Of a stretch of 64,000 nt of DNA, positions 1,918-52,373 are shown piece by piece. The notes beneath the pieces were generated by a model that did no database searches, was not told the DNA's origin, and was given only the letters and a program-made list of their open reading frames with translations. The number at the start of each line of letters is the position of its first letter. Within the stretch, counting starts at the first letter, position 1. The position numbers and the translations under genes are program-made. The DNA is from Shigella phage ChubbyThor. Location of the stretch: sequence record OL615013. One strand, 5' to 3'.

Positions 1918-2444
1918 TTCACTTCCTCTTTATTGTTGATCGTCGTTAATAATTCTACACCCATAACCTTCTGGGACAAAATGTTAATCGCCTCTTGGAT
2001 GCTCTTCAGAGACATCATCTCAACAGGCGACGGTGCATCATTATGTCGGTCGGTTAGGTACATATTGCGCAGATTGTTGTAGTTCGTGCGGTTGATGCAC
2101 GCAGCGTTCAGCGCAATATTCAGGATATACATCATCTGTTCAATGGTTACATCCTTCGGCATGGCGTGGATGTAATAGATCGAGCCTTCGAAGTAGACGT
2201 CCAGCAGTTCATCTGGTATCTCGACGCCACCACTGGCATACTCTTCGATCATCCTGAACAGAGACTCTGGTTGCTCGCTGGCGATCTTATGCGTGACAGT
2301 CGCCGAAAGACCATCACCCAGTTTAACAGGCCTGGTGTATTCAGTGATGAATACATTATGACCGCCGCCGATGATGTGCTCGGCGAAATTAGCGGATGCG
2401 TTCGCCGCGTTGTCTGCATGATATGAAACGACGACTGTAAACAT
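1902..2444 (-). CDS. hypothetical protein
   Basis: ORF track 180 aa; no recognisable motif; stop overlaps uvsX start. Confidence 0.45.
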   Translation of the reverse strand: MFTVVVSYHADNAANASANFAEHIIGGGHNVFITEYTRPVKLGDGLSATVTHKIASEQPESLFRMIEEYASGGVEIPDELLDVYFEGSIYYIHAMPKDVTIEQMMYILNIALNAACINRTNYNNLRNMYLTDRHNDAPSPVEMMSLKSIQEAINILSQKVMGVELLTTINNKEEVKWPVH

Positions 2445-2998
2445 TAGAACTCCAGGGTCAGAGGGGTTTCTGCGGACTTGTCGTAATCCGCGCCGCCAGC
2501 AGCACGCAGACGATTGCGATCGTTCTTGCGCTTGTGTGCCAGCATGTAAGTCTCAATATCGATCTCCATGTAAGAACACGCAGCCGACAGGAAGAACATG
2601 AGGGTCTCGACACAAGGTTCGTTCATGAACTGCCCAAGGCGATACGTCACACCGCGATGCCCAACAGCACCCAAAGCAGATGGGGTGAATTCGCGACCAC
2701 CGAGGATTTCGAATTCTTCTTCGATCTCGCCTTTGGTGCGGTCCATAAGGATGAAGCACAGCATGAAGTGTACCACGTCCACCAGTTCATAGACTGCGTT
2801 CGCATGGTCAAACCCGATGTCGTTGCCATAGACCTTCCAGTCGCGGCTGGTTTCGTCAAGGAACTCTGCCCATTCACGATAGATGGAGTTGATGACTGCG
2901 TTCTGACTCCATACATTCTTCCACTCTTCCCCAAAGTAGGCCACGTTGGTGGCCTTTTGGAGTTCGAGCAGGCTTTTGATATGCCCTGCTGTGATCAT
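2444..2998 (-). CDS. 56: dNTP pyrophosphatase, all-alpha NTP-PPase family (T4 gp56 dCTPase/dUTPase-like)
   Basis: 184 aa; ELVDVVHFMLCFIL matches the ELVDIFHFVLNMF core of T4 gp56; EEW/REWAEF acidic helices typical of MazG/dimeric-dUTPase fold; 4-nt overlap with next gene. Confidence 0.6.
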   Translation of the reverse strand: MITAGHIKSLLELQKATNVAYFGEEWKNVWSQNAVINSIYREWAEFLDETSRDWKVYGNDIGFDHANAVYELVDVVHFMLCFILMDRTKGEIEEEFEILGGREFTPSALGAVGHRGVTYRLGQFMNEPCVETLMFFLSAACSYMEIDIETYMLAHKRKNDRNRLRAAGGADYDKSAETPLTLEF

Positions 2999-3564
2999 TT
3001 ACGTTCTCCGTAGAATTTAACGAACGGTGCCCAACCATCAAATGGATTGAGGAATTCGTAGTCCACTTTCATCTCGTCAATGAAAGCCTCTATATCGTCC
3101 TCTATGATACCAGCGCGGTCGGCCTTTGAAATGCGGGTGATAGGACATTTCGTACTCAGCGCCCATTCATATTCCTGAGGGGTGCGCAGATCGCTCACGA
3201 TATAATGTACATGAGGGTTCTGCTCCACCAAAGGAAGCTGGAAGCGCTTGAAGAATGCCAGGAACAGATCGGGCTGCACGTAACGCAAGCCCGTATCGCT
3301 GCCGAGATGGAGCCAGATCTGCCTTGGGGTTAAGCCCTTGGGGTTATCAGGGTGGACGTAAGGAACGTCCTTCACGGCATCCTCTACCTCCGCTGGCAGC
3401 CACGGGTAGATGTAATTGGCAACCCGGCGCAGTTCGTCTGAGAACGAAAGGCGCTGGATATCCATATCACCCTGTAGATGGTGATAGCTGATGAGGGACT
3501 CCAAACAGAAGTCCTTACCGGAGCGCTTGCGCCCCGTAAAGAATTCAAGGTTCGGGTACATCAT
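2995..3564 (-). CDS. 1: deoxynucleoside monophosphate kinase (T4 gp1-like)
   Basis: 189 aa; N-terminal FFTGRKRSGKDF is the GxKRSGKD P-loop of T4 dNMP kinase. Confidence 0.7.
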   Translation of the reverse strand: MMYPNLEFFTGRKRSGKDFCLESLISYHHLQGDMDIQRLSFSDELRRVANYIYPWLPAEVEDAVKDVPYVHPDNPKGLTPRQIWLHLGSDTGLRYVQPDLFLAFFKRFQLPLVEQNPHVHYIVSDLRTPQEYEWALSTKCPITRISKADRAGIIEDDIEAFIDEMKVDYEFLNPFDGWAPFVKFYGERK

Positions 3565-4610
3565 ACCACACCTTCCAGGAACTTAGGATCAACGATCTTG
3601 CGGTCAACTGGAGAATGGGTGAGCGCAATGTTCAAACCATGATCCTGAATCCGGTTCATGTTGATGAGCTTATCGTTCAGTTTGCAGTACAGGCAGTATG
3701 CCATTTGCATGATCAAGCCACGATCAGCATCATATTCCTTCAGGTGGGCGACCACAGTTTCCCACGGGCTACCGATATCACAGTGATGAAGCACACCAGT
3801 GAACAGATTGCGGATATGGTTCTGGTTGGTCACGTTCTTGAAGTGAATCATGGAGTTGATGAACCCAGCTTCTACTTTGGTGTCCTTCGTGATCTTGCCC
3901 AGCTGCTTCTGGCTGACTTCATTGTTATAGTAATGAAGATTGTTAGAGAAGAGCTTGTACTGGCCGACATCAACATCCAGCACCTGAGCAATCACTTCCT
4001 GAAGAATAGAGAACTCAATGAAGTTGATTGAACTCATACCCCACAGAACATCCTGTGAGCGGTTGATGACCGTCAGGTTCAGACGACCTTCAACGATGGC
4101 GAACAACAGAGCCAGGTTACACACCATGTCTTTAGTCTTCGCTTCGCCGCTCTCGCTGAACTTCGCCAGACCAGCATCTGAATCTAGAGCCGGATCATAG
4201 ATGGTGAGGTACGCCTGACGGGTGTTTGGGTTCTTGCGCAGACGGTTGATGACGCTATCCAGCTGGCCATGGGCGTACAGACGCGGACCATAAGCGGCTC
4301 GCCATGTGTGGCCGTTGTCGGAAAAGTTGGCGGCGCGGGGCAACACGCGGGACAGGAAGCGAACGTCATCGCGCCCGGACAGAACCCAGAAGGTCTCGCC
4401 GATGGCAGCGATAGCCGATGAGTTACGGCCTTCAACGGAAAGCCAGCGGTCACGGATGTCACTGACGGTGATAGTCACACCATCAAGGAATCGGGTGCCG
4501 TCCGTGTTGATCTCCGCATTACCAGGATCAGATTCAATTCCGTATTCGCGGATAGCCAAGACAGCCTGCTTCAGCATGTCATTGTTGTTAATTGCTTTGA
4601 TTTCCATCAA
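3561..4610 (-). CDS. thymidylate-synthase-family deoxypyrimidylate C5-hydroxymethylase/methylase (dUMP- or dCMP-modifying)
   Basis: 349 aa; TS core blocks recognisable: RQAYLTIYDP (cf. RRIIVSAWNV), DMVCNLALLF (catalytic Cys region), RSQDVLWGMSSINF (cf. RSCDVFLGLPFNIA), NNLHYY (cf. GDTHLY); ~100-aa N-terminal extension. Confidence 0.75.
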   Translation of the reverse strand: MMEIKAINNNDMLKQAVLAIREYGIESDPGNAEINTDGTRFLDGVTITVSDIRDRWLSVEGRNSSAIAAIGETFWVLSGRDDVRFLSRVLPRAANFSDNGHTWRAAYGPRLYAHGQLDSVINRLRKNPNTRQAYLTIYDPALDSDAGLAKFSESGEAKTKDMVCNLALLFAIVEGRLNLTVINRSQDVLWGMSSINFIEFSILQEVIAQVLDVDVGQYKLFSNNLHYYNNEVSQKQLGKITKDTKVEAGFINSMIHFKNVTNQNHIRNLFTGVLHHCDIGSPWETVVAHLKEYDADRGLIMQMAYCLYCKLNDKLINMNRIQDHGLNIALTHSPVDRKIVDPKFLEGVV

Positions 4611-5343: not shown

Positions 5344-6210
5344 TTACGCGGCAGCTTTCGCTTCGGCCAGCGCCTGAGGCAACCAGGCGTTGATTGCTTT
5401 GACCAGAGACTCGGCATCGGCCTCTTTGATCTTCTGGCGTTTGGTGAAGGACTTGCCGTTCACGTACAGACTGAAGCCCCAGCCACCGGAAACGATAGGC
5501 GCGACGTCAACGTATGTGTTGGTGCGGGCATGCAGGTTTTCAGGGTTGGCCAGTTCGGTGACCGGGAACTGGAACCAGCGCATGTCTGGGTTCACGTAGC
5601 TCAGGAACACACCTGGGACAACTCCTGCTTCAATCGCAGCCAAGACCGGACCGTGGTTAGAAGCGCGAGCCGCGTCAACCATTTCTTCACGTTTGGTATG
5701 ACGGCGTTTACGCTCTTCCAGCGCCGCCTGCGGGGTCAGGGTCTTACCCTTCGCCGCTTCTTTCAGCATAGAAGACGCCAGGGAACCCACTTTCGCGTCG
5801 GACGGCTGATTACCTTCTTCCAGCGCTGCGTTGACTGCGTCTTTAACCGCGTCTACCGGGGCGTCGGACACTGGGGCTTCACCTGCGTCGGCGTTACCAG
5901 CACCAGCGGTTGCGTCGGCGGAGATCGGCGCTTCAGCAACAACGGTTTCAGCGTCTTTCAGGGATACTTCAGCGTGGGCTTGCTCTTGGGCTTGCGCCAG
6001 AGCCTGCTGAGTTTCTTCCTTCTCTTCAGCGCTCAGACCTTCAATCAGTTCGAATCCGTTGGCGGACTGAAGAACGCCTTCCACCATACGGCGCAGGGTA
6101 ACGTTGCCGATCATCAGGCCTGCTTCTTTGATTTCAGCCTGGATAGCCGTAACGTCTTTGCCTTCAATTTCAATTTTGGTTCCAGAATCTACATGAAGAA
6201 TATATGACAT
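5344..6210 (-). CDS. Ala/Glu-rich low-complexity protein, function unknown
   Basis: ORF track 5344..6312; likely true start MSYILHVDSG at ~6210 (upstream codons are leader); own promoter and terminator. Confidence 0.5.
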   Translation of the reverse strand: MSYILHVDSGTKIEIEGKDVTAIQAEIKEAGLMIGNVTLRRMVEGVLQSANGFELIEGLSAEEKEETQQALAQAQEQAHAEVSLKDAETVVAEAPISADATAGAGNADAGEAPVSDAPVDAVKDAVNAALEEGNQPSDAKVGSLASSMLKEAAKGKTLTPQAALEERKRRHTKREEMVDAARASNHGPVLAAIEAGVVPGVFLSYVNPDMRWFQFPVTELANPENLHARTNTYVDVAPIVSGGWGFSLYVNGKSFTKRQKIKEADAESLVKAINAWLPQALAEAKAAA

Positions 6211-6280
6211 AATAAAAACCCTTTCGTTATTAAGACCGTCTTCGCGGCATATTGCTGTTCTGACCGTGTAGTGAGAACAT

Positions 6281-6309
6281 AATATACTGCATTTTTCATA
6301 AATGTAAAC
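6281..6309 (-). promoter_or_regulatory. T4-type early (sigma70) promoter: GTTTAC-17 nt-TATATT
   Basis: Minus-strand reading GTTTACatttatgaaaaatgcagTATATT with A/T-rich UP-like tract upstream; ~70 nt 5' of the 6210 start. Confidence 0.55.
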
Positions 6310-6422
6310 CACTTTTTATTGAAAAGAAGTTTACACCTTAGTGTTAAACCGCGCCCAGCCAAGCGGAGCGCGAACTTGCGTGAATATTAACTTTCAACGT
6401 CAGTATTGAAAACAAGTTTCAG

Positions 6423-7166
6423 TCACTTGTTCAGCAAGTAGAAGTTGGGGATGTCTTCTGAATATTCAGCTGGCGTGAACTCCAGTTTCACTTTGGCTTC
6501 GACGTTTTCCCGAACTTTGCGAATAACTTCTTCCCTTTGTTCAGTGGCCATGACTTCTTCAATCGCGCCGTACAGAGTTTCAACAATCACGCTGATGTAA
6601 TTGTGAATCGCCCGACAGGTGTTCTGGTCATATTCCATGTCTGGGTCAATCTTCAGTTCAACCTGATCACGCCCAACCAGCAAATGCCCGTTAGACACAT
6701 TCACGGTGTGCTTGAACACATCACTCGCTTTCATGGACACGCCATCAGCCTGCGCCAGGTAAAACTCAGTCTTGGAGAACTGCTCCAGAACATCGGCAGG
6801 GAAATCGATTTGAATATCACTACGGTGGCGGCCAAGGTAATACAAGCAATGTGAAAGTCTGAGACACGCTTCTTGTGCCATCTTCACATGGGATTTTGCG
6901 TGTTCGTATCCAGCCAAGACATCACGCAAAAAGTCTGCGATTTCCTGGCTCCCATACTTGACCTGATCTTCTAAATCCAAGGCAGTAGGGCTATCCCACT
7001 CAACGCCCAAGACATCCAAGATGTTTTGTTCACGGACAGATTTACCCTGACGATTAAACCCCAGAGTGCACCCCACTTCAAACCCGGTTGGTTCAAAGGT
7101 GGTCAGTTTCACATCAAGACGAGCTGGAGTGAAATCTAGCCCGAACAGACGATAAATTTGTGACAT
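6423..7166 (-). CDS. hypothetical protein
   Basis: ORF track 247 aa; no recognisable motif. Confidence 0.45.
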   Translation of the reverse strand: MSQIYRLFGLDFTPARLDVKLTTFEPTGFEVGCTLGFNRQGKSVREQNILDVLGVEWDSPTALDLEDQVKYGSQEIADFLRDVLAGYEHAKSHVKMAQEACLRLSHCLYYLGRHRSDIQIDFPADVLEQFSKTEFYLAQADGVSMKASDVFKHTVNVSNGHLLVGRDQVELKIDPDMEYDQNTCRAIHNYISVIVETLYGAIEEVMATEQREEVIRKVRENVEAKVKLEFTPAEYSEDIPNFYLLNK

Positions 7167-45791: not shown

Positions 45792-46298
45792 TTATAGGGT
45801 AACAAGTGATACGGTAAAAACCATCGTCCCGTCTGTTGCCATTTTTCTTGAAACTGGTATGACGCGAGGCTGGCAGAATATCCATTCTTTCTCCATGGAC
45901 GCCAAGTCCAGCATATCCATTTCTGATTCATCGCCTTTGTTCACAAATTTTTCTAGAGAACCATAGACATTAAGCCCCTCCGGGAGTCCGTTTCGATGTT
46001 TGTAACAAATGCGGGCAACAGCTTTGGTTCCGTACGATTTAGAAAATTGTTTGGCCACATGCTTCAGTTCACTGAAGCTAAGACAAGAATCCCATGTCTG
46101 GAACATGTCGCCTCGTTCAAACAACATCTCTAAACGCGCAACGTCCTCCTTAGGCAGCCCGCGATAAAGTGTGGTCGTCTGTGGCTCGCGTAATTCTTGC
46201 ACCAGATCACGGACGGCAGGGGAAACAGTACCGGGGCGCATGATGTGGGACTTATCATGGGCGAGGTAAAATAAATCTTGAATTTGTTGATCGGTCAT
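45792..46298 (-). CDS. candidate mono-ADP-ribosyltransferase (R-S-E type), low confidence
   Basis: 169 aa (start MTDQQIQ); ordered motifs TTLYRG (aromatic-Arg), WDSCLSFS (STS-like), GDESEMD/MEKEWIF (ExE candidates). Confidence 0.3.
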   Translation of the reverse strand: MTDQQIQDLFYLAHDKSHIMRPGTVSPAVRDLVQELREPQTTTLYRGLPKEDVARLEMLFERGDMFQTWDSCLSFSELKHVAKQFSKSYGTKAVARICYKHRNGLPEGLNVYGSLEKFVNKGDESEMDMLDLASMEKEWIFCQPRVIPVSRKMATDGTMVFTVSLVTL

Positions 46299-46322
46299 GA
46301 TATAGTTCCTGCATTTCAAATA
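46299..46322 (-). promoter_or_regulatory. conserved translation-initiation leader (TTTGAAATGCAGGAACTATATC-ATG)
   Basis: Same leader family. Confidence 0.55.
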
Positions 46323-46357: not shown

Positions 46358-46597
46358 TTAACTGATGTGCTTCAGAAGAGCGAAGAGGATCGCGGCCTTG
46401 GCTTTCACCTTGCCGACGACGCCTGTCTCAACATCGACTTCTTCAGCAACCCACTCTTTGCCCTTCTTGCTGATGATAACGTCACGGCGCTGGGCATATA
46501 CCTCTTTGGTCGCATACACACGACGGAACCCTTTAGCGCGGAGCAAGCCCCAATTGCGATCAATCTCTACTGAAGTTTCGACCATTTTGTTCTTCAT
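46358..46597 (-). CDS. hypothetical basic protein
   Basis: ORF track 79 aa; leader variant GTTGAAAGGTAAGATTATATC-ATG. Confidence 0.45.
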   Translation of the reverse strand: MKNKMVETSVEIDRNWGLLRAKGFRRVYATKEVYAQRRDVIISKKGKEWVAEEVDVETGVVGKVKAKAAILFALLKHIS

Positions 46598-46720
46598 GAT
46601 ATAATCTTACCTTTCAACCTGGTGAACCCCATCGTTCGCCAGTTATTGAATAATAGGATATTCCTTAGAGGAAGTAAACCCCTAAAAGTAAAAATCCCCA
46701 ACAAACGTTGGGGACTTCTG

Positions 46721-47047
46721 TTATTTGCGCAGGGCAACCACGAGTTCAGCGAGTTCGCCCATGGTAGGGTCATCGCCTTTACTACCCAGCCAGCCGTCGT
46801 CGATTTCGACCTGAAACTCTTCTTCGAGGTCCATTACAATTTCGATAGCGTCCAGTTCGTCGCCGCCGAGATCCTTCTTGGTGCGGAGACCAGCCAGCTT
46901 GTCCAGGGCATCGTTGATTACCACTTCGGCATCGACGATCCCTTTGATGCTACTCTTGTCCTCATCACTGACTTCCAGATTCAGATTGTCAGTGGCGTAC
47001 TGAGCCAGATGACGCATGACTTCAACATATGTTGGTTTACTGCTCAT
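46721..47047 (-). CDS. acyl-carrier-protein homolog lacking the phosphopantetheine-attachment Ser (GGDELD instead of GADSLD)
   Basis: 108 aa; ACP helix II signature KDLGGDELDAIEIVMDLEEEFQVEI; acidic. Confidence 0.6.
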   Translation of the reverse strand: MSSKPTYVEVMRHLAQYATDNLNLEVSDEDKSSIKGIVDAEVVINDALDKLAGLRTKKDLGGDELDAIEIVMDLEEEFQVEIDDGWLGSKGDDPTMGELAELVVALRK

Positions 47048-47089
47048 GCTACTTCTCCCAAAGAAAGGCGGGTTGCCCCGCCCGTTGGA

Positions 47090-49294
47090 TTAGATTTTGA
47101 TCTCTTTCTCTGCCAGTTCGGCAGTGACCTTGTACTTCACGCCATCCACTTCAACTTCCATGGTTGACTCTTCCAGGTCGAGGTCGGTGAACCAGCCGTG
47201 GCCAGCAACGATACCATACACCACTTTAGACAGCGTCTTGTTCAAGGCGCGGACTTCAGTGATGGCCGCCTTGGCAGCAGCGTCGATCCAGTTTTCGATC
47301 AGCTGTTTCTGTACGGCTTCAGGCACGGCAGTGATCGCAGGAGACTTCACGAATGCTTCGTATTCCTTCAGAGCATTGGCGATGAACAAGTCACCCGCAT
47401 TGAGTTTCTTGTTCTCGGCAATCTTCTTCTGTACTGCCGCGATGCTAGGCAGAGAAGACGCTCCAGCGATCTTAACGTTCAGCTCACGGCTCATGTAGAC
47501 ATCCGTGGAGTCCTTCAGTTCGGTCTTCGGTGAGAAGCCGTAATCGCGGATGCCGTAGGAGGACAGGAACTCTGCCGCCTCAGCGCCGTACTGTACTGCC
47601 AGGCCTTTGGCGTTACCTTTGCCAACCAGTTCATCACGGAAGAACTTCAGCACCTTCTGCTTGCCTTTCAGGGCTTCCAGACGGACATTATCCGCAAAGA
47701 ACTGAGCAGCACTGATGTTCTTGACCATGGCGCGGTTGACCAGCGGTACGCTTTCCAGGTTCAGGACAAACACTTCCGGACCACCGAACACATGGACGCC
47801 CATCTGGCACAGATTGGTTACAACTTCAACATCAGCCCTGAACGGCAGAGTCTTCACGTTGATGATGCCGTCTTTGACGATGGTGTAGTTGCGCCACTGG
47901 AAAGTATCCAGTTCTTCAGGCAGACCGAACTTCTTCTGCACGAACTCCGGAATCGCCACAGTGCCGTGCTGGACAGTGCGTACACTGATATTAGGGCGTT
48001 CGGAGTTATAGACCAAATCGCTGATTGGCACAACACCCAGATCGTTGTTAGGTTCGAACGTCGGGTTCCACTCTTCGTGCTCGGCCAGCTTGAGAGCCAG
48101 GGCTTTGCGCTCTTCTTTGGACTCGGCGTTCGCGATCTGTTCTGCCAGCTTGTCTTCGGTATCGTCCAGTTTCTGAGCCGTACCGCGACCGATGCTCTTG
48201 TAGGAGAACATAGGATGTTTGGTAGCAACACACACGCCAGCTTCAGCCAGATACGTCAGCACGTCAACGACGGTCGTCGCATCTTCAGCTGGAACCAGGT
48301 CATAATCAATACCGTCAACGCCGCGCAGCTGGTCATCAACGATGGCCTGGGTCAGATCAACTTTGATGTTGGAGTAGTCCTGCTTGGTGAAGCAGTTGCT
48401 GTACTGTTTGATGAAGCGAACGTCACCCGTTTTCTTCAGGGCAGCCCACACCAGGTCTGCGTCCATGATGTGTACGCCGTAGAACGCCAGCACGTATGCC
48501 GCCTGGATGTCCGCCAGCGCATCAAGCTGGTCGATCATGTTAGGATTGACGACCCACAGCTTCGTGACGCTCTCAGGGATGCTCACGTGGCCGATAGGAT
48601 GGTCTTCATCCGGCTGTACCGCCAGCACAGTTGCTACGCCGTTTTCAACGTAGATGGCATGATCATACAGCAACGGAACATCAACAACCACTTTCGGCAC
48701 CGAGGACTTCAGTACGTTTTCCAGCTCGGTCTGATATTCGGTCTGGCCTTCGGCGAACACGTGAGTCGCGCCGGAACGTTCAGACATCAGAGCCAGCAGT
48801 TCGCGGTTACAGTACCAGCCGTATTCGATGAATGTGACGTTGTCGAAAGCGGAAGGAAGTTTTTCGGCGGTCTCCAGGATCTCATTGGAGCGCCAGCAGT
48901 TGTCATAACCATCGGTCATGAACGCCAGGTTGTTGACGTAGCCGGGTTTCTTCAGGTCACGCGCAGTATCCATCGCCAGTTTCAATGGTTCAACAAAACC
49001 AGTACAGCCGGATGGTTGTAGGAAGCGGTCGATCAGTTTGTTCAGCTCGCTCAGGTCAGATGCTGCACTAACCTGACGGCCAGCGAACACAGTACCAAAG
49101 TCGCCACGGGATGAGAAATACAGAACACTCACAGTATCTTCCGGTTTCACCAGAGAAGGCAGGTTCTCCTTCAGATGCTTACGGACTTCAGGGAGCGCAC
49201 GGTACATCGAATAAGAGATGTCCACAACGATTACATGGTTGGACGGGGCAGCAGTCGCAACCGCATTCTTAAATTCTAATGATTCAATCATCGT
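47090..49294 (-). CDS. von Willebrand factor A (vWA) domain protein, large
   Basis: ORF track 47090..49375; start MIESLEF; MIDAS motif VVDISYSM (DxSxS) near N-terminus; rest unassigned. Confidence 0.55.
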   Translation of the reverse strand, partial: TMIESLEFKNAVATAAPSNHVIVVDISYSMYRALPEVRKHLKENLPSLVKPEDTVSVLYFSSRGDFGTVFAGRQVSAASDLSELNKLIDRFLQPSGCTGFVEPLKLAMDTARDLKKPGYVNNLAFMTDGYDNCWRSNEILETAEKLPSAFDNVTFIEYGWYCNRELLALMSERSGATHVFAEGQTEYQTELENVLKSSVPKVVVDVPLLYDHAIYVENGVATVLAVQPDEDHPIGHVSIPESVTKLWVVNPNMIDQLDALADIQAAYVLAFYGVHIMDADLVWAALKKTGDVRFIKQYSNCFTKQDYSNIKVDLTQAIVDDQLRGVDGIDYDLVPAEDATTVVDVLTYLAEAGVCVATKHPMFSYKSIGRGTAQKLDDTEDKLAEQIANAESKEERKALALKLAEHEEWNPTFEPNNDLGVVPISDLVYNSERPNISVRTVQHGTVAIPEFVQKKFGLPEELDTFQWRNYTIVKDGIINVKTLPFRADVEVVTNLCQMGVHVFGGPEVFVLNLESVPLVNRAMVKNISAAQFFADNVRLEALKGKQKVLKFFRDELVGKGNAKGLAVQYGAEAAEFLSSYGIRDYGFSPKTELKDSTDVYMSRELNVKIAGASSLPSIAAVQKKIAENKKLNAGDLFIANALKEYEAFVKSPAITAVPEAVQKQLIENWIDAAAKAAITEVRALNKTLSKVVYGIVAGHGWFTDLDLEESTMEVEVDGVKYKVTAELAEKEIKI

Positions 49295-49511
49295 TATTGC
49301 CTTCTTCAGGGTTGTCTTCGGCCTCACCTTCCGGCTTGACCAGCATATGTTCAAGGAAATCGCGATTGAGTTCAATCTGACTCATCAGCGTTTCCGATGG
49401 GCTAAAGCGGCGGTCGAGGTTGTCGACGCCCGCACGTTCAAATGGTTTGGCCATATCAGCCGCCCTTGACTTCAGTAACGCCAGGGATCGACCGCAGGGC
49501 TTGGCGAACAT
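49284..49511 (-). CDS. small acidic protein (start uncertain)
   Basis: ORF track 75 aa; overlaps vWA gene start. Confidence 0.3.
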   Translation of the reverse strand: MFAKPCGRSLALLKSRAADMAKPFERAGVDNLDRRFSPSETLMSQIELNRDFLEHMLVKPEGEAEDNPEEGNNDD

Positions 49512-49857: not shown

Positions 49858-51522
49858 TCAGATTTGTGATGCCAGTTCTACTACGAGAGGAGCGGCACGG
49901 ACACGCGCATCTTCCAGAGTTTGAGTGTTGAAGAACTTGCCGTCACGATACACCAGCTGGTGCTGGTTGTCGGCGTCTTGCACCTGATCAAAGGTGATAC
50001 CGTCAACCAACACTAGTTTACCCTGAGAGTCTTTAATGACTTTAAGGAAACCACGCGCAGACTTTTTAGTCCCGCCTTTGTCGGTCTTCGGCTCTTTGAA
50101 GATCTCACGGAATTCGCCGTTCACCTTACCAGCCGTTGCTTTCACCGCCGTGCCAGTACTGTCACGGGTGTTCATCTGGTAGGTGTAGGAACCGATACCG
50201 AACACCACGTTGATGGAAGCGAAGTTCCGGCCAGCCAGACGACTAAAGATCTGGTCTTCACGTGCCAGGGTGATGGAGTCACCGTAGATCAGACCGATGT
50301 GTTCGTCCAACAGGAAGTGGCCAGTTTCAGTTTGAGTACCGCCAAAGATCTCCCACAGGCGCTGGATAGAGCCGACTGCTTCAGAACGGCTGATGATATT
50401 ACGGTCGTCTGCCATCAGAGAGTTGATCGTGCCTTCGCCTGTGATCAGGTGATAGGTGTTCGTCTCTTCGATGTGAATGACTTCAGTGCTGCTAGACACG
50501 CCGCTGATGTTCAGCGTGGCGCGGTCTTTGAACCCCTCAATGCGGTAGCCGCCGACGATATGAACTGGGTCGCCCGAGTCAGGGCGGATCACGACTTTAC
50601 CGTTACGCGCCATGATAATGTCTTTCAGGCGAGGGAGATAGTCGTCGATGACCTGCCAGTAATCCCACGCATCAGACACGATGCTGACGATGCCATCAGG
50701 ATACACGTCCTGCACCAGGCGGCGGAAGGTTTCGAATTCGCCATCCTTCGTACCCATACACATCACGGCGTGTTCGGTAGCCGCAACAGAACCAGCAACG
50801 ACATAGTCTTCGTCGATGTCTGCGCCATAATACTCTTCTACGAAGTCCAGGGCAGGGTTGGTATCGGTGCCTTTGAAGAACACCAGATGACCGGAACCGG
50901 AAGACGCCGCGTCATGCCATCCACTCATGCCACGGAAGGAGAAGTCGTGGCCTTGGTAGTCGATGAACCAATGGTCCGGCGACACGCCTGTAGCGAGGGC
51001 AGCTTTCACCATCAGTGCCTTGTAATGCAGGGCGATGGTGGCGTTCGTCATCGGCTTCCAGATCTCAGAGCTGAACACAGTCTCCAGATAGTTGGTCAGC
51101 CAGTAGAACTCCGGCAGGGTGTTGAACATCACATACACCGGAACGCCATATGGGCACATGGTGCCTTCAGGCAGAGCACGGACTTCGATAGGCAGGTAGC
51201 CGAGGTCATGCAGGGCTTCAATATGCTCTGTGCCGACGCGGCCTGGACCCAGGACTTTGTTCATGCGACGGGCATACTTCTTCAACACCTTGGCCTTTGG
51301 GCGCTGGAAGAATGCTTCGTCAAACAGTTCGTGGAACCAGGTCATGAAGCCCTGGATGCCCCAGACCACCACGCCGTTCTTCGGCAGGTGAGAGTTGAAC
51401 AGTTTGTTGGAGCGCGGAGTTCCGTTGGAGAACACCAGCTCGCTGCCTTCAGGGAACTGATAGATGTGCCCTGATTTGTAGAAGTCGATTGCATGGATTG
51501 GGTCTAAGTGGCGCATGCTCAT
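49858..51522 (-). CDS. nicotinamide phosphoribosyltransferase-family enzyme (NadV/Nampt-like; candidate nicotinamide ADP-ribose transferase of an NAD+ reconstitution pathway)
   Basis: 554 aa; Nampt blocks HDFSFRGMSG, GTDTNPALD, VVIRPDSGDP; 4-nt overlap with upstream Prs-like gene. Confidence 0.8.
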   Translation of the reverse strand: MSMRHLDPIHAIDFYKSGHIYQFPEGSELVFSNGTPRSNKLFNSHLPKNGVVVWGIQGFMTWFHELFDEAFFQRPKAKVLKKYARRMNKVLGPGRVGTEHIEALHDLGYLPIEVRALPEGTMCPYGVPVYVMFNTLPEFYWLTNYLETVFSSEIWKPMTNATIALHYKALMVKAALATGVSPDHWFIDYQGHDFSFRGMSGWHDAASSGSGHLVFFKGTDTNPALDFVEEYYGADIDEDYVVAGSVAATEHAVMCMGTKDGEFETFRRLVQDVYPDGIVSIVSDAWDYWQVIDDYLPRLKDIIMARNGKVVIRPDSGDPVHIVGGYRIEGFKDRATLNISGVSSSTEVIHIEETNTYHLITGEGTINSLMADDRNIISRSEAVGSIQRLWEIFGGTQTETGHFLLDEHIGLIYGDSITLAREDQIFSRLAGRNFASINVVFGIGSYTYQMNTRDSTGTAVKATAGKVNGEFREIFKEPKTDKGGTKKSARGFLKVIKDSQGKLVLVDGITFDQVQDADNQHQLVYRDGKFFNTQTLEDARVRAAPLVVELASQI

Positions 51523-52373
51523 TTTACACGTCCTGTATTTTCAGTTTTGAAAGGAAGACCGTCGGCGGTGATATTCTCCCACCAGACAGTGTCGGCATAC
51601 ACAGCATCGTAAATCCCGTCGAAAACAGAGAGACCTTTGCTGAAGATGCCATGGGTAACGAAGAGCGTCATGTGTTTGGGCTTGTGCTTCTGAAGCTCTT
51701 TGCCTAACTCAACGAACGTGCGCCCACCGTCGCAGATATCATCAACCACAACCAGATAGCGGTCTTTGATCAGTTCAGGGTTTGTAATGCTCACCCCAAT
51801 GATCTCACCAGTCTTGGTGTCACGGTTCTTGTGTCCGTAGACAACAGGAACACCATCCAGAGACAGGCTGAGGGCTTCGGTCTTCTTCGCCGCGCCACCG
51901 TCAGGGGCTACCAACACAGCATTGTTCCCACGGATGAACCAGCCCAGATACTGACGCACGATGTAATCTTGCGGGACAACATGGACGTTGTTGATCAGAG
52001 AAGTCACAACATGGCTGTGAGGGTCTTTGATCGCCACGCGGTCAAAGTTCATGCTATTGATGAACTCAGCCGCCCACTTCACAGACAGAGGCTCGCCGAA
52101 GTCGCAATGGCGGTCCTGGCGAGCATACGGGAAGTAAGGGATATACGCATGGAATGTCGTCAGACGATCCACGTTGCCCAGGCCACGCACGGCGTTTACC
52201 AGAAGCGCCAGCTCAATGAAGTCGGCTGATGATTTGATGTGAGCATCAATCACCACGTTCTGGACGTGACCGACAGGGATGCCAGCCTTTTGGATCTTGA
52301 TATGTTCCTCACCACCTGGGAAGGTGAAGTGCTTGTAGAACACATCTTGGTCGTTCAATTTCAAACGAAACAT
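51519..52373 (-). CDS. ribose-phosphate pyrophosphokinase-family enzyme (Prs-like; candidate ADP-ribose pyrophosphokinase)
   Basis: 284 aa; IPYFPYARQDRH (cf. IPYFGYARQDRR) and PRPP-binding loop VVVDDICDGGRT. Confidence 0.8.
   Translation of the reverse strand: MFRLKLNDQDVFYKHFTFPGGEEHIKIQKAGIPVGHVQNVVIDAHIKSSADFIELALLVNAVRGLGNVDRLTTFHAYIPYFPYARQDRHCDFGEPLSVKWAAEFINSMNFDRVAIKDPHSHVVTSLINNVHVVPQDYIVRQYLGWFIRGNNAVLVAPDGGAAKKTEALSLSLDGVPVVYGHKNRDTKTGEIIGVSITNPELIKDRYLVVVDDICDGGRTFVELGKELQKHKPKHMTLFVTHGIFSKGLSVFDGIYDAVYADTVWWENITADGLPFKTENTGRVK

Follow-up and report, generated by a model that had tools for sequence, protein, structure and literature searches.

A conserved phage protein with the acyl carrier protein fold and without the carrier serine, a possible mimic of bacterial acyl carrier protein

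The acyl carrier protein (ACP) AcpP is an essential interaction hub of bacteria, and its clients include the enzymes of fatty-acid, phospholipid, lipid A and biotin synthesis as well as SpoT, MukB and IscS. The docking site for the Fab enzymes, PlsX and SpoT is helix II, and the interaction with MukB is also impaired by mutations in or near this helix (PMC3340395). In Escherichia coli AcpP, phosphopantetheine is carried by Ser36. ACP that lacks this prosthetic group (apo-ACP) is reported to inhibit glycerol-3-phosphate acyltransferase more strongly than the form that carries it (holo-ACP), and growth of E. coli to stop when apo-ACP is produced together with 'TesA (reviewed in PMC3896788). Here, we consider a gene in a stretch of 64,000 nucleotides from Shigella phage ChubbyThor (sequence record OL615013; this whole stretch is called the window below). 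The gene, at 46721-47047 on the minus strand, encodes an ACP-like protein of 108 amino acids that has no carrier serine. It is a member of phrog_4154 and is not in itself new: its GenBank relatives, in hundreds of phage records, are called 'acyl carrier protein', and the same name is used in genome papers (PMC3220722, PMC10892097). Full-text searches of the literature for a serine-less or mimic phage ACP returned only genome-annotation tables; no paper was found in them that notes the missing serine or proposes a function, nor was a phage effector found that imitates AcpP.

In the alignment of the phage protein with the ACP of Bacillus subtilis by phmmer, as well as in that with E. coli AcpP by MAFFT, the column of Ser36 is occupied by Glu64 (codon GAA, 46856-46858(-)), as the first-pass annotation of this DNA had proposed. 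The exchange is a property of the whole family, with Glu or Asp in 37 of 37 sequences, the window included. In the close set of 28 sequences, which has identities of 58-96% and contains the window protein, Glu occurs 26 times and Asp twice. Seven more full-length relatives (P0109-P0116), with 32-48% identity, came from a profile search that covered 1.8 billion representatives exhaustively, and all of them have Glu or Asp. The versions of Erwinia phage Bue1 and Serratia phage 3M, both of which read D-E-L, were found when the fetched loci were scanned with a profile and a motif. The former is an open reading frame (ORF) at about 6253-6612 of locus L006 (vB_EamM-Bue1, MG973030) with a hidden Markov model E value of 1.6e-8; the latter is a gene for 90 amino acids (vB_SmaA_3M, 6070-6342 of locus L014), about 0.9 kb downstream of a gene for a protein with a von Willebrand factor A (vWA) domain. 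The 3M protein has neither the N-terminal helix nor the W...DDPT insertion that are described below, and may be nearer to the ancestral form of the family. The ORF in Bue1 is unannotated; it lies in a gap of 440 bp directly after the vWA gene, where the gene call was missed in the public record.

Two simple ways in which the missing serine could have been deceptive are ruled out. A serine retained at a shifted position, for which the first-pass annotation had left room, is not present: none of the six serines of the protein (S2, S3, S27, S32, S33 and S89) is conserved, no Ser column is invariant, and the phmmer and MAFFT registers agree. A one-off mutation or sequencing error is ruled out by the family-wide occurrence of Glu or Asp and by the codon GAA, which is common to three diverged genes. 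Because the phosphopantetheine-bearing serine is replaced by an obligatory Glu or Asp, the protein, as judged from its sequence, cannot be phosphopantetheinylated at the canonical site and hence cannot carry acyl groups.

In other respects, the protein resembles ACP. Its ORF starts with ATG, with GGGAGA just before, and its product scores 25.0 bits with the Pfam model PP-binding (PF00550), above the gathering cut-off of 20.8, and matches phrog_4154 ('acyl carrier protein') from end to end. A phmmer search of PDB sequences returned about 95 ACPs, the best with an E value of about 1e-5. In the match to the ACP of B. subtilis (E about 1e-5), the segment dlggdeldaieivmdleeef is paired with the B. 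subtilis protein, and the MAFFT alignment with E. coli AcpP agrees with the register. The ACP models of NCBIfam gave at best 38.4 bits against a cut-off of 71, with matches confined to residues 57-84, so that the scores remain below the cut-offs for the AcpP equivalogs and subfamilies. In an AlphaFold2 model, built from an alignment of 28 homologues and with a mean pLDDT (predicted local distance difference test) of 81, helices span residues 7-21, 28-39, 45-52, 64-78 and 96-106, and a Foldseek search with this model matched almost exclusively ACPs, with weak statistics. By the model, the protein has the four-helix carrier-protein fold. The ACP fold and the helix-II signature (KDLGGDELDAIEIVMDLEEEF) that the first-pass annotation had recognized in the ORF are in this way borne out, and so is the acidic character of the protein: the isoelectric point (pI) is 4.18, to be compared with 4.05 for E. 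coli AcpP, and 26 acidic residues give a net charge of about -15.

Similarity to AcpP is greatest in helix II, the 'recognition helix' K58-F78 (KDLGGDELDAIEIVMDLEEEF; 46814-46876(-); model helix 64-78), in which 14 of 21 residues are identical; over residues 58-84 the number is 17 of 27 (KDLGGDELDAIEIVMDLEEEFQVEIDD). Four residues, D63, L65, E69 and E75, do not vary across the wider family; D66, M72, I82 and D84 hardly do, and V71 is nearly invariant in the 28 close sequences. In AcpP, the residues D63, L65, D66, E69, V71, M72, E75, I82 and D84 correspond to D35, L37, D38, E41, V43, M44, E47, I54 and D56. Together, they make up the acidic rim of helix II and its hydrophobic L-V-M centre; the recognition surface is retained. 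Outside helix II the protein diverges fast. Between helix II and the last helix there is a family-specific insertion, G85-T95 (GWLGSKGDDPT; 46763-46795(-)), which is absent from AcpP and in which W86, G88, D92, D93, P94 and T95 are invariant. Divergence is also discordant with that of the neighbouring gene: in Salmonella phage CRW-SP2 (proteins P0040 and P0112), the ACP-like protein is 38% identical to that of the window and the adjacent vWA protein 81%, suggesting that the small gene was replaced by another allele or evolved very rapidly. Such fast, neighbour-discordant divergence would fit a factor that interacts with the host.

The gene is nevertheless constrained. The ratio of nonsynonymous to synonymous substitution rates (dN/dS) is 0.10-0.19, compared with 0.07-0.09 for the vWA gene, which indicates purifying selection; the alignment of the 28 close sequences has 33 invariant columns, W86 and DDPT among them, and intact copies are found in about 270 phage records. 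One peptide of the homologue in phage Sajous1, gp186, has been seen by mass spectrometry (PMC10892097). The gene would encode a functional 'pseudo-ACP', for which the evidence of translation is thin.

These properties fit a binding protein rather than a carrier. The interpretation that we favour, and hold tentatively, is that the protein is a non-chargeable mimic of ACP, which competes for proteins that recognise ACP helix II. Since the retained residues match those of the recognition helix of AcpP, the idea of a decoy is a plausible one. To see how it could work, consider a pseudo-ACP that docks by its helix II onto the basic patches of proteins which recognise AcpP. These could be enzymes of fatty-acid, phospholipid or lipid A synthesis, or the non-lipid clients SpoT, MukB and IscS. 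The docked pseudo-ACP would be a dead-end competitor, in which the side chain of Glu or Asp would supply the negative charge that in holo-ACP belongs to the phosphodiester of the prosthetic group. That the protein binds host ACP clients, that Glu64 mimics the charge and that the phage benefits are what we infer from this comparison; that a serine-less protein of ACP fold is encoded here is a firm observation of sequence and fold, and the mechanism is proposed by analogy. As support we count the inhibitory properties reported for apo-ACP, mentioned above, and the occurrence of ACP-like domains without the serine in other phage sequences, P0125 (DEL) and Vibrio phage 277E43-1 (DNL).

Several points weigh against mimicry. 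The sequence points to no specific host target. Many partners are contacted also by helix III of AcpP, where the phage protein has the family-specific W86...DDPT insertion, and with the extra N-terminal helix the surface is only partly AcpP-like. Residues of the D35/D38 type may be conserved because they cap the helix and not because they bind a partner. Host AcpP is furthermore among the most abundant proteins, with 0.25% of soluble protein (PMC3896788), and a competitor would therefore need high affinity or high expression. A hairpin upstream of the gene, to be described below, may lower its expression. Finally, that the gene has stayed linked to the vWA gene suggests a partner encoded by the phage and not by the host.

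The 3.3 kb around the ACP-like gene are 97% identical to Shigella phage Ag3 and have 89-95% identity to Salmonella phage SKML-39, Shigella phage MK-13, Yersinia phage CAU_YEP3 and the Dickeya Limestoneviruses, which identifies the window phage as an Ag3-like member of the Ackermannviridae. The first-pass annotation had judged the two genes against the T4 core, and this framing is wrong; a T4-family context is ruled out by the 97% identity to Ag3, which is an Ackermannviridae phage. T4-like replication and structural genes are present in the window phage despite this membership.

The vWA gene (47090-49291(-), phrog_2426) precedes the ACP-like gene on the same strand and encodes 733 amino acids, with an N-terminal vWA domain and then a beta-sandwich region. 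Its start had been placed at 49294 and is corrected to the ATG at 49291-49289, three bases inside, which still gives 733 amino acids. The metal ion-dependent adhesion site (MIDAS) is intact, as had been claimed for it: the motif D24-I-S26-Y-S28 lies at 49208-49222(-), conservation in the D/S/S columns is 90% or more among 49 homologues with identities down to 33%, and the Thr and Asp of the MIDAS are invariant in them. The protein was found to have the vWA alpha/beta fold, with 25.9 bits for Pfam VWA_3, just below the gathering cut-off of 27, and with VWA_2 matched by 41 of the 49 family members at E values up to 0.01. For the C-terminal 450 or so residues (about 300-733) no relative was detectable, and no AAA+ partner gene was seen adjoining the vWA gene. 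In Dickeya phage LIMEstone1, mass spectrometry of virion preparations detected the orthologue (6 peptides, 11% coverage) and did not detect the ACP-like protein (PMC3296691); the vWA protein may therefore be a minor constituent of the virion. The start codon of the vWA gene overlaps the stop of an ORF for 75 amino acids (49284-49511(-), phrog_8656), which has an acidic C-terminus (...EAEDNPEEGNNDD) and is translationally coupled to the vWA gene through ATGATTGA. Small ORFs that overlap the vWA start occur also at loci L001, L015 and L016, and the product of the 75-amino-acid ORF could be another partner of the vWA protein.

In integrin I-domains and in anthrax-toxin receptors, metal coordination at the MIDAS is completed by an Asp or Glu of the ligand. 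The main rival to mimicry, which we regard as unlikely but as deserving serious consideration, is that the ACP-like protein is a partner of the vWA protein, with the Glu or Asp at the exposed tip of helix II completing the coordination of the MIDAS metal. It would then serve as a subunit, regulator or assembly chaperone of a vWA protein that is possibly associated with the virion, as the six LIMEstone1 peptides would suggest (PMC3296691). This would account for a Ser column that is always a carboxylate and in which D and E are both accepted, and it is in line with MIDAS residues that are invariant or nearly so in the 49 homologues. It is in line, too, with the gene order. The ACP-like and vWA genes are paired, adjacent or near each other, in all Ackermannviridae checked (the window, CAU_YEP3, LIMEstone1, metagenomic contig L015, Bue1 and 3M), and the pairing reaches about 50% identity for the vWA protein and about 30% for the ACP-like protein (loci including L001, L015, L016, L006 and L014).

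Outside this family, the pairing breaks down. Homologues of the vWA gene in the T4-like Yersinia phage JC221, in Shewanella phage Thanatos-1 and in two contigs of 452 kb and 144 kb have no ACP-like gene within a flank of 4-5 kb. Five flanks, that of Thanatos-1 included, were searched with the profile, which returned nothing ACP-like except the uncalled ORF of Bue1, and none of the genes read after the vWA homologues in JC221 and in the 452-kb and 144-kb contigs is ACP-like. In these four genomes the MIDAS is conserved, and there it must therefore have another ligand. Conversely, P0125, a related ACP-like gene of the D-E-L type in a phage-like contig, has no vWA gene called within 6 kb. An obligatory module of the two genes is thus not upheld outside the Ackermannviridae, where each gene also occurs without the other; a functional tie between the proteins would rest on synteny within one phage family. 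A partnership with the vWA protein is further opposed by the discordant divergence of the two proteins in CRW-SP2, by the failure to detect the ACP-like protein in LIMEstone1 virions, and by the 26 acidic residues, among which Glu64 is one candidate ligand of several.

The first-pass annotation also had the two genes cotranscribed. This holds by inference only, and transcription from one gene to the next must pass a terminator-like hairpin. Between the vWA stop and the ACP-like start there is a G+C-rich hairpin followed by TTTCTTT (47066-47083(-), -18.3 kcal/mol), terminator-like or attenuating. No promoter-like site was found between this hairpin and the ACP-like start codon, so that the ACP-like gene is probably expressed by read-through of the vWA transcript, possibly with attenuation; the missing promoter can also be cited for a partnership of the two proteins. 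Directly after the ACP-like stop codon there is a strong intrinsic terminator, a hairpin with a U-run (46695-46714(-); 13 bp with flanks, -18.5 kcal/mol, z = -4.1), and in the annotation of LIMEstone1 terminators are given at both equivalent sites. Right after the second terminator a sigma-70-like promoter (TTTACT-17-TATTAT, 46650-46678(-)) stands ahead of a gene for 79 amino acids (46358-46597(-)), and the LIMEstone1 annotators placed an early promoter at the equivalent position.

Mimicry of ACP and partnership with the vWA protein are compatible, since the vWA protein could serve as an anchor for the mimic. It is conceivable, if rather doubtful, that the Ackermannviridae and some other phages with D-E/D/N-L genes use mimicry of holo-ACP for host takeover or counter-defence: the carboxylate would stand in for the phosphate of phosphopantetheine, the mimic would be locked onto a specific host client of AcpP (for example PlsB, SpoT, MukB or an enzyme of lipid A synthesis), and it would possibly be held through its Glu at the MIDAS of a partly virion-associated vWA protein.

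Less probable than either is that the ACP ancestry is incidental and that the protein serves as an acidic decoy of a general kind or counters defence, for instance as a nucleic-acid mimic, with a target unrelated to the clients of ACP. The pI and net charge given above, the quick divergence outside one helix and a region rich in genes of counter-defence type (a NARP1-like Prs/NAMPT pair and an Alt-like ADP-ribosyltransferase domain) would agree with this. Genuine ACPs are, however, equally acidic, as the pI of E. coli AcpP illustrates, and what has been kept is specifically the residues of the ACP recognition helix and not a general array of charges. A small globular four-helix bundle would, moreover, seem unlike the elongated charge patterns of known DNA mimics.

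LysW-type amino-group carrier proteins carry their cargo on a glutamate. By analogy, the phage protein might still be a carrier, through a non-canonical covalent attachment on the Glu/Asp carboxylate or on another residue, but we consider this highly improbable. Precisely where a carrier protein has its serine, a carboxylate is strictly conserved, and Ackermannviridae DNA is modified with amine-bearing groups, with a thymine pyrophosphorylase gene several kb away in a relative. Against this, Asp and Glu replace each other freely, which would not be expected of an acceptor site with precise geometry, no gene of ligase or ATP-grasp type is annotated adjacent in the neighbourhoods read, and such chemistry is not known for the ACP fold. 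The weakest alternative, a decaying and functionless remnant of a phage ACP gene that has lost its serine, would explain why a gene annotated 'acyl carrier protein' throughout GenBank has no function reported in the literature found, but it is effectively excluded by conservation, that is, by the intact frames, the low dN/dS values, the 33 invariant columns with the family-specific W86 and DDPT and the acidic residue kept across relatives of about 30% identity, as well as by the Sajous1 homologue seen in mass spectrometry.

Other genes of the neighbourhood can be summarized briefly. A NAMPT-like gene (49858-51522(-); NCBIfam PRK09198, 471 bits) overlaps by 4 nt a divergent Prs-like gene (51519-52373(-)), which scores 105.7 bits with TIGR01251, below the cut-off of 113. 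Their order resembles that of NARP1, a phage pathway for NAD+ reconstitution that consists of Adps and Namat (bioRxiv 10.1101/2024.02.11.579819). A Prs/NAMPT-like pair stands directly upstream of the vWA gene also in metagenomic contig L015, and LIMEstone1 keeps only a NadV fragment of it. Two genes downstream of the ACP-like gene, a gene for 175 amino acids (45792-46319(-)) has a product that is similar to phrog_832, 'RNA polymerase ADP-ribosylase' (Alt-like), over the C-terminal part of the latter (E = 1.8e-15), and that has no match in Pfam or NCBIfam. In Bue1, a few genes separate the vWA gene from an upstream gene for a RyR-domain protein (2344-3183 of locus L006); according to a 2026 preprint, phage RyR-domain proteins degrade immune signals based on ADP-ribose, and this gene adds to the counter-defence character of the region.

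Should mimicry of ACP be confirmed, the family would be a new class of phage effector, aimed at the ACP interaction hub. In a widespread family of phages, a strictly conserved ACP look-alike that cannot be charged would suggest a new way to shut down or rewire host metabolism, and it would offer a binder, already optimised by nature, for a surface that is an antibacterial target. Phages of this family are under study for biocontrol, against the plant pathogens Dickeya and Enterobacter and against Salmonella in the production of food. In several hundred GenBank and RefSeq entries the gene product is called 'acyl carrier protein', a literal function that is chemically impossible for it.

How, then, does the family compare with described systems? 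Relative to AcpP, it has Glu or Asp for Ser36 in every member, it adds an N-terminal helix (residues 7-21; 108 amino acids versus 78), it has an 8-residue insertion with W86...DDPT where AcpP has its helix III region, and its score does not come near any of the NCBIfam AcpP cut-offs (38 versus 71 bits). With apo-ACP it shares the absence of the prosthetic group and the presentation of helix II. Apo-ACP is, however, converted by AcpS, which cannot convert the phage protein; the latter has a carboxylate and not a hydroxyl, as well as extra structural elements, and the inhibition is one reported for apo-ACP. The neighbouring vWA protein differs from integrin I-domains, the anthrax toxin receptor, ITIH, ArnB and the Sec23/24 trunk in its C-terminal part of about 450 residues, which has no detectable relative.

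Other ACP-like proteins without the serine share the same helix II, with D-E/D/N-L for D-S-L: the metagenomic P0125, P0118, P0121 and P0128, the N-terminal domain of Vibrio phage 277E43-1 and the bacterial P0212. Of these, P0118, P0125 and P0128 have also the DDPT motif, where P0121 has DDK, and all of them lack the N-terminal helix of the phage family. The protein of 277E43-1 (3980-4513 of locus L012) has 177 amino acids, with Asn for the carrier serine in its ACP-like domain (LGFDNLDFVELLMALEEEF) and an unrelated C-terminal half. P0212, a PP-binding protein of 139 amino acids with D-D-L for D-S-L, is found in metagenomic bacterial contigs (L009, L010 and L011) in a chromosomal context, adjoining a gene for an enzyme of the mandelate racemase/muconate lactonizing family; ACP-like proteins without the serine are therefore not confined to phages. 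Genuine phage ACPs (Pseudomonas jumbo phage HRDY3; phrog_5934) are nearly identical to the family in helix II, with 80% over residues 59-84, but both ACPs of HRDY3 keep the serine (GGDSLD and HMDSLD), which the Ackermannviridae family never does.

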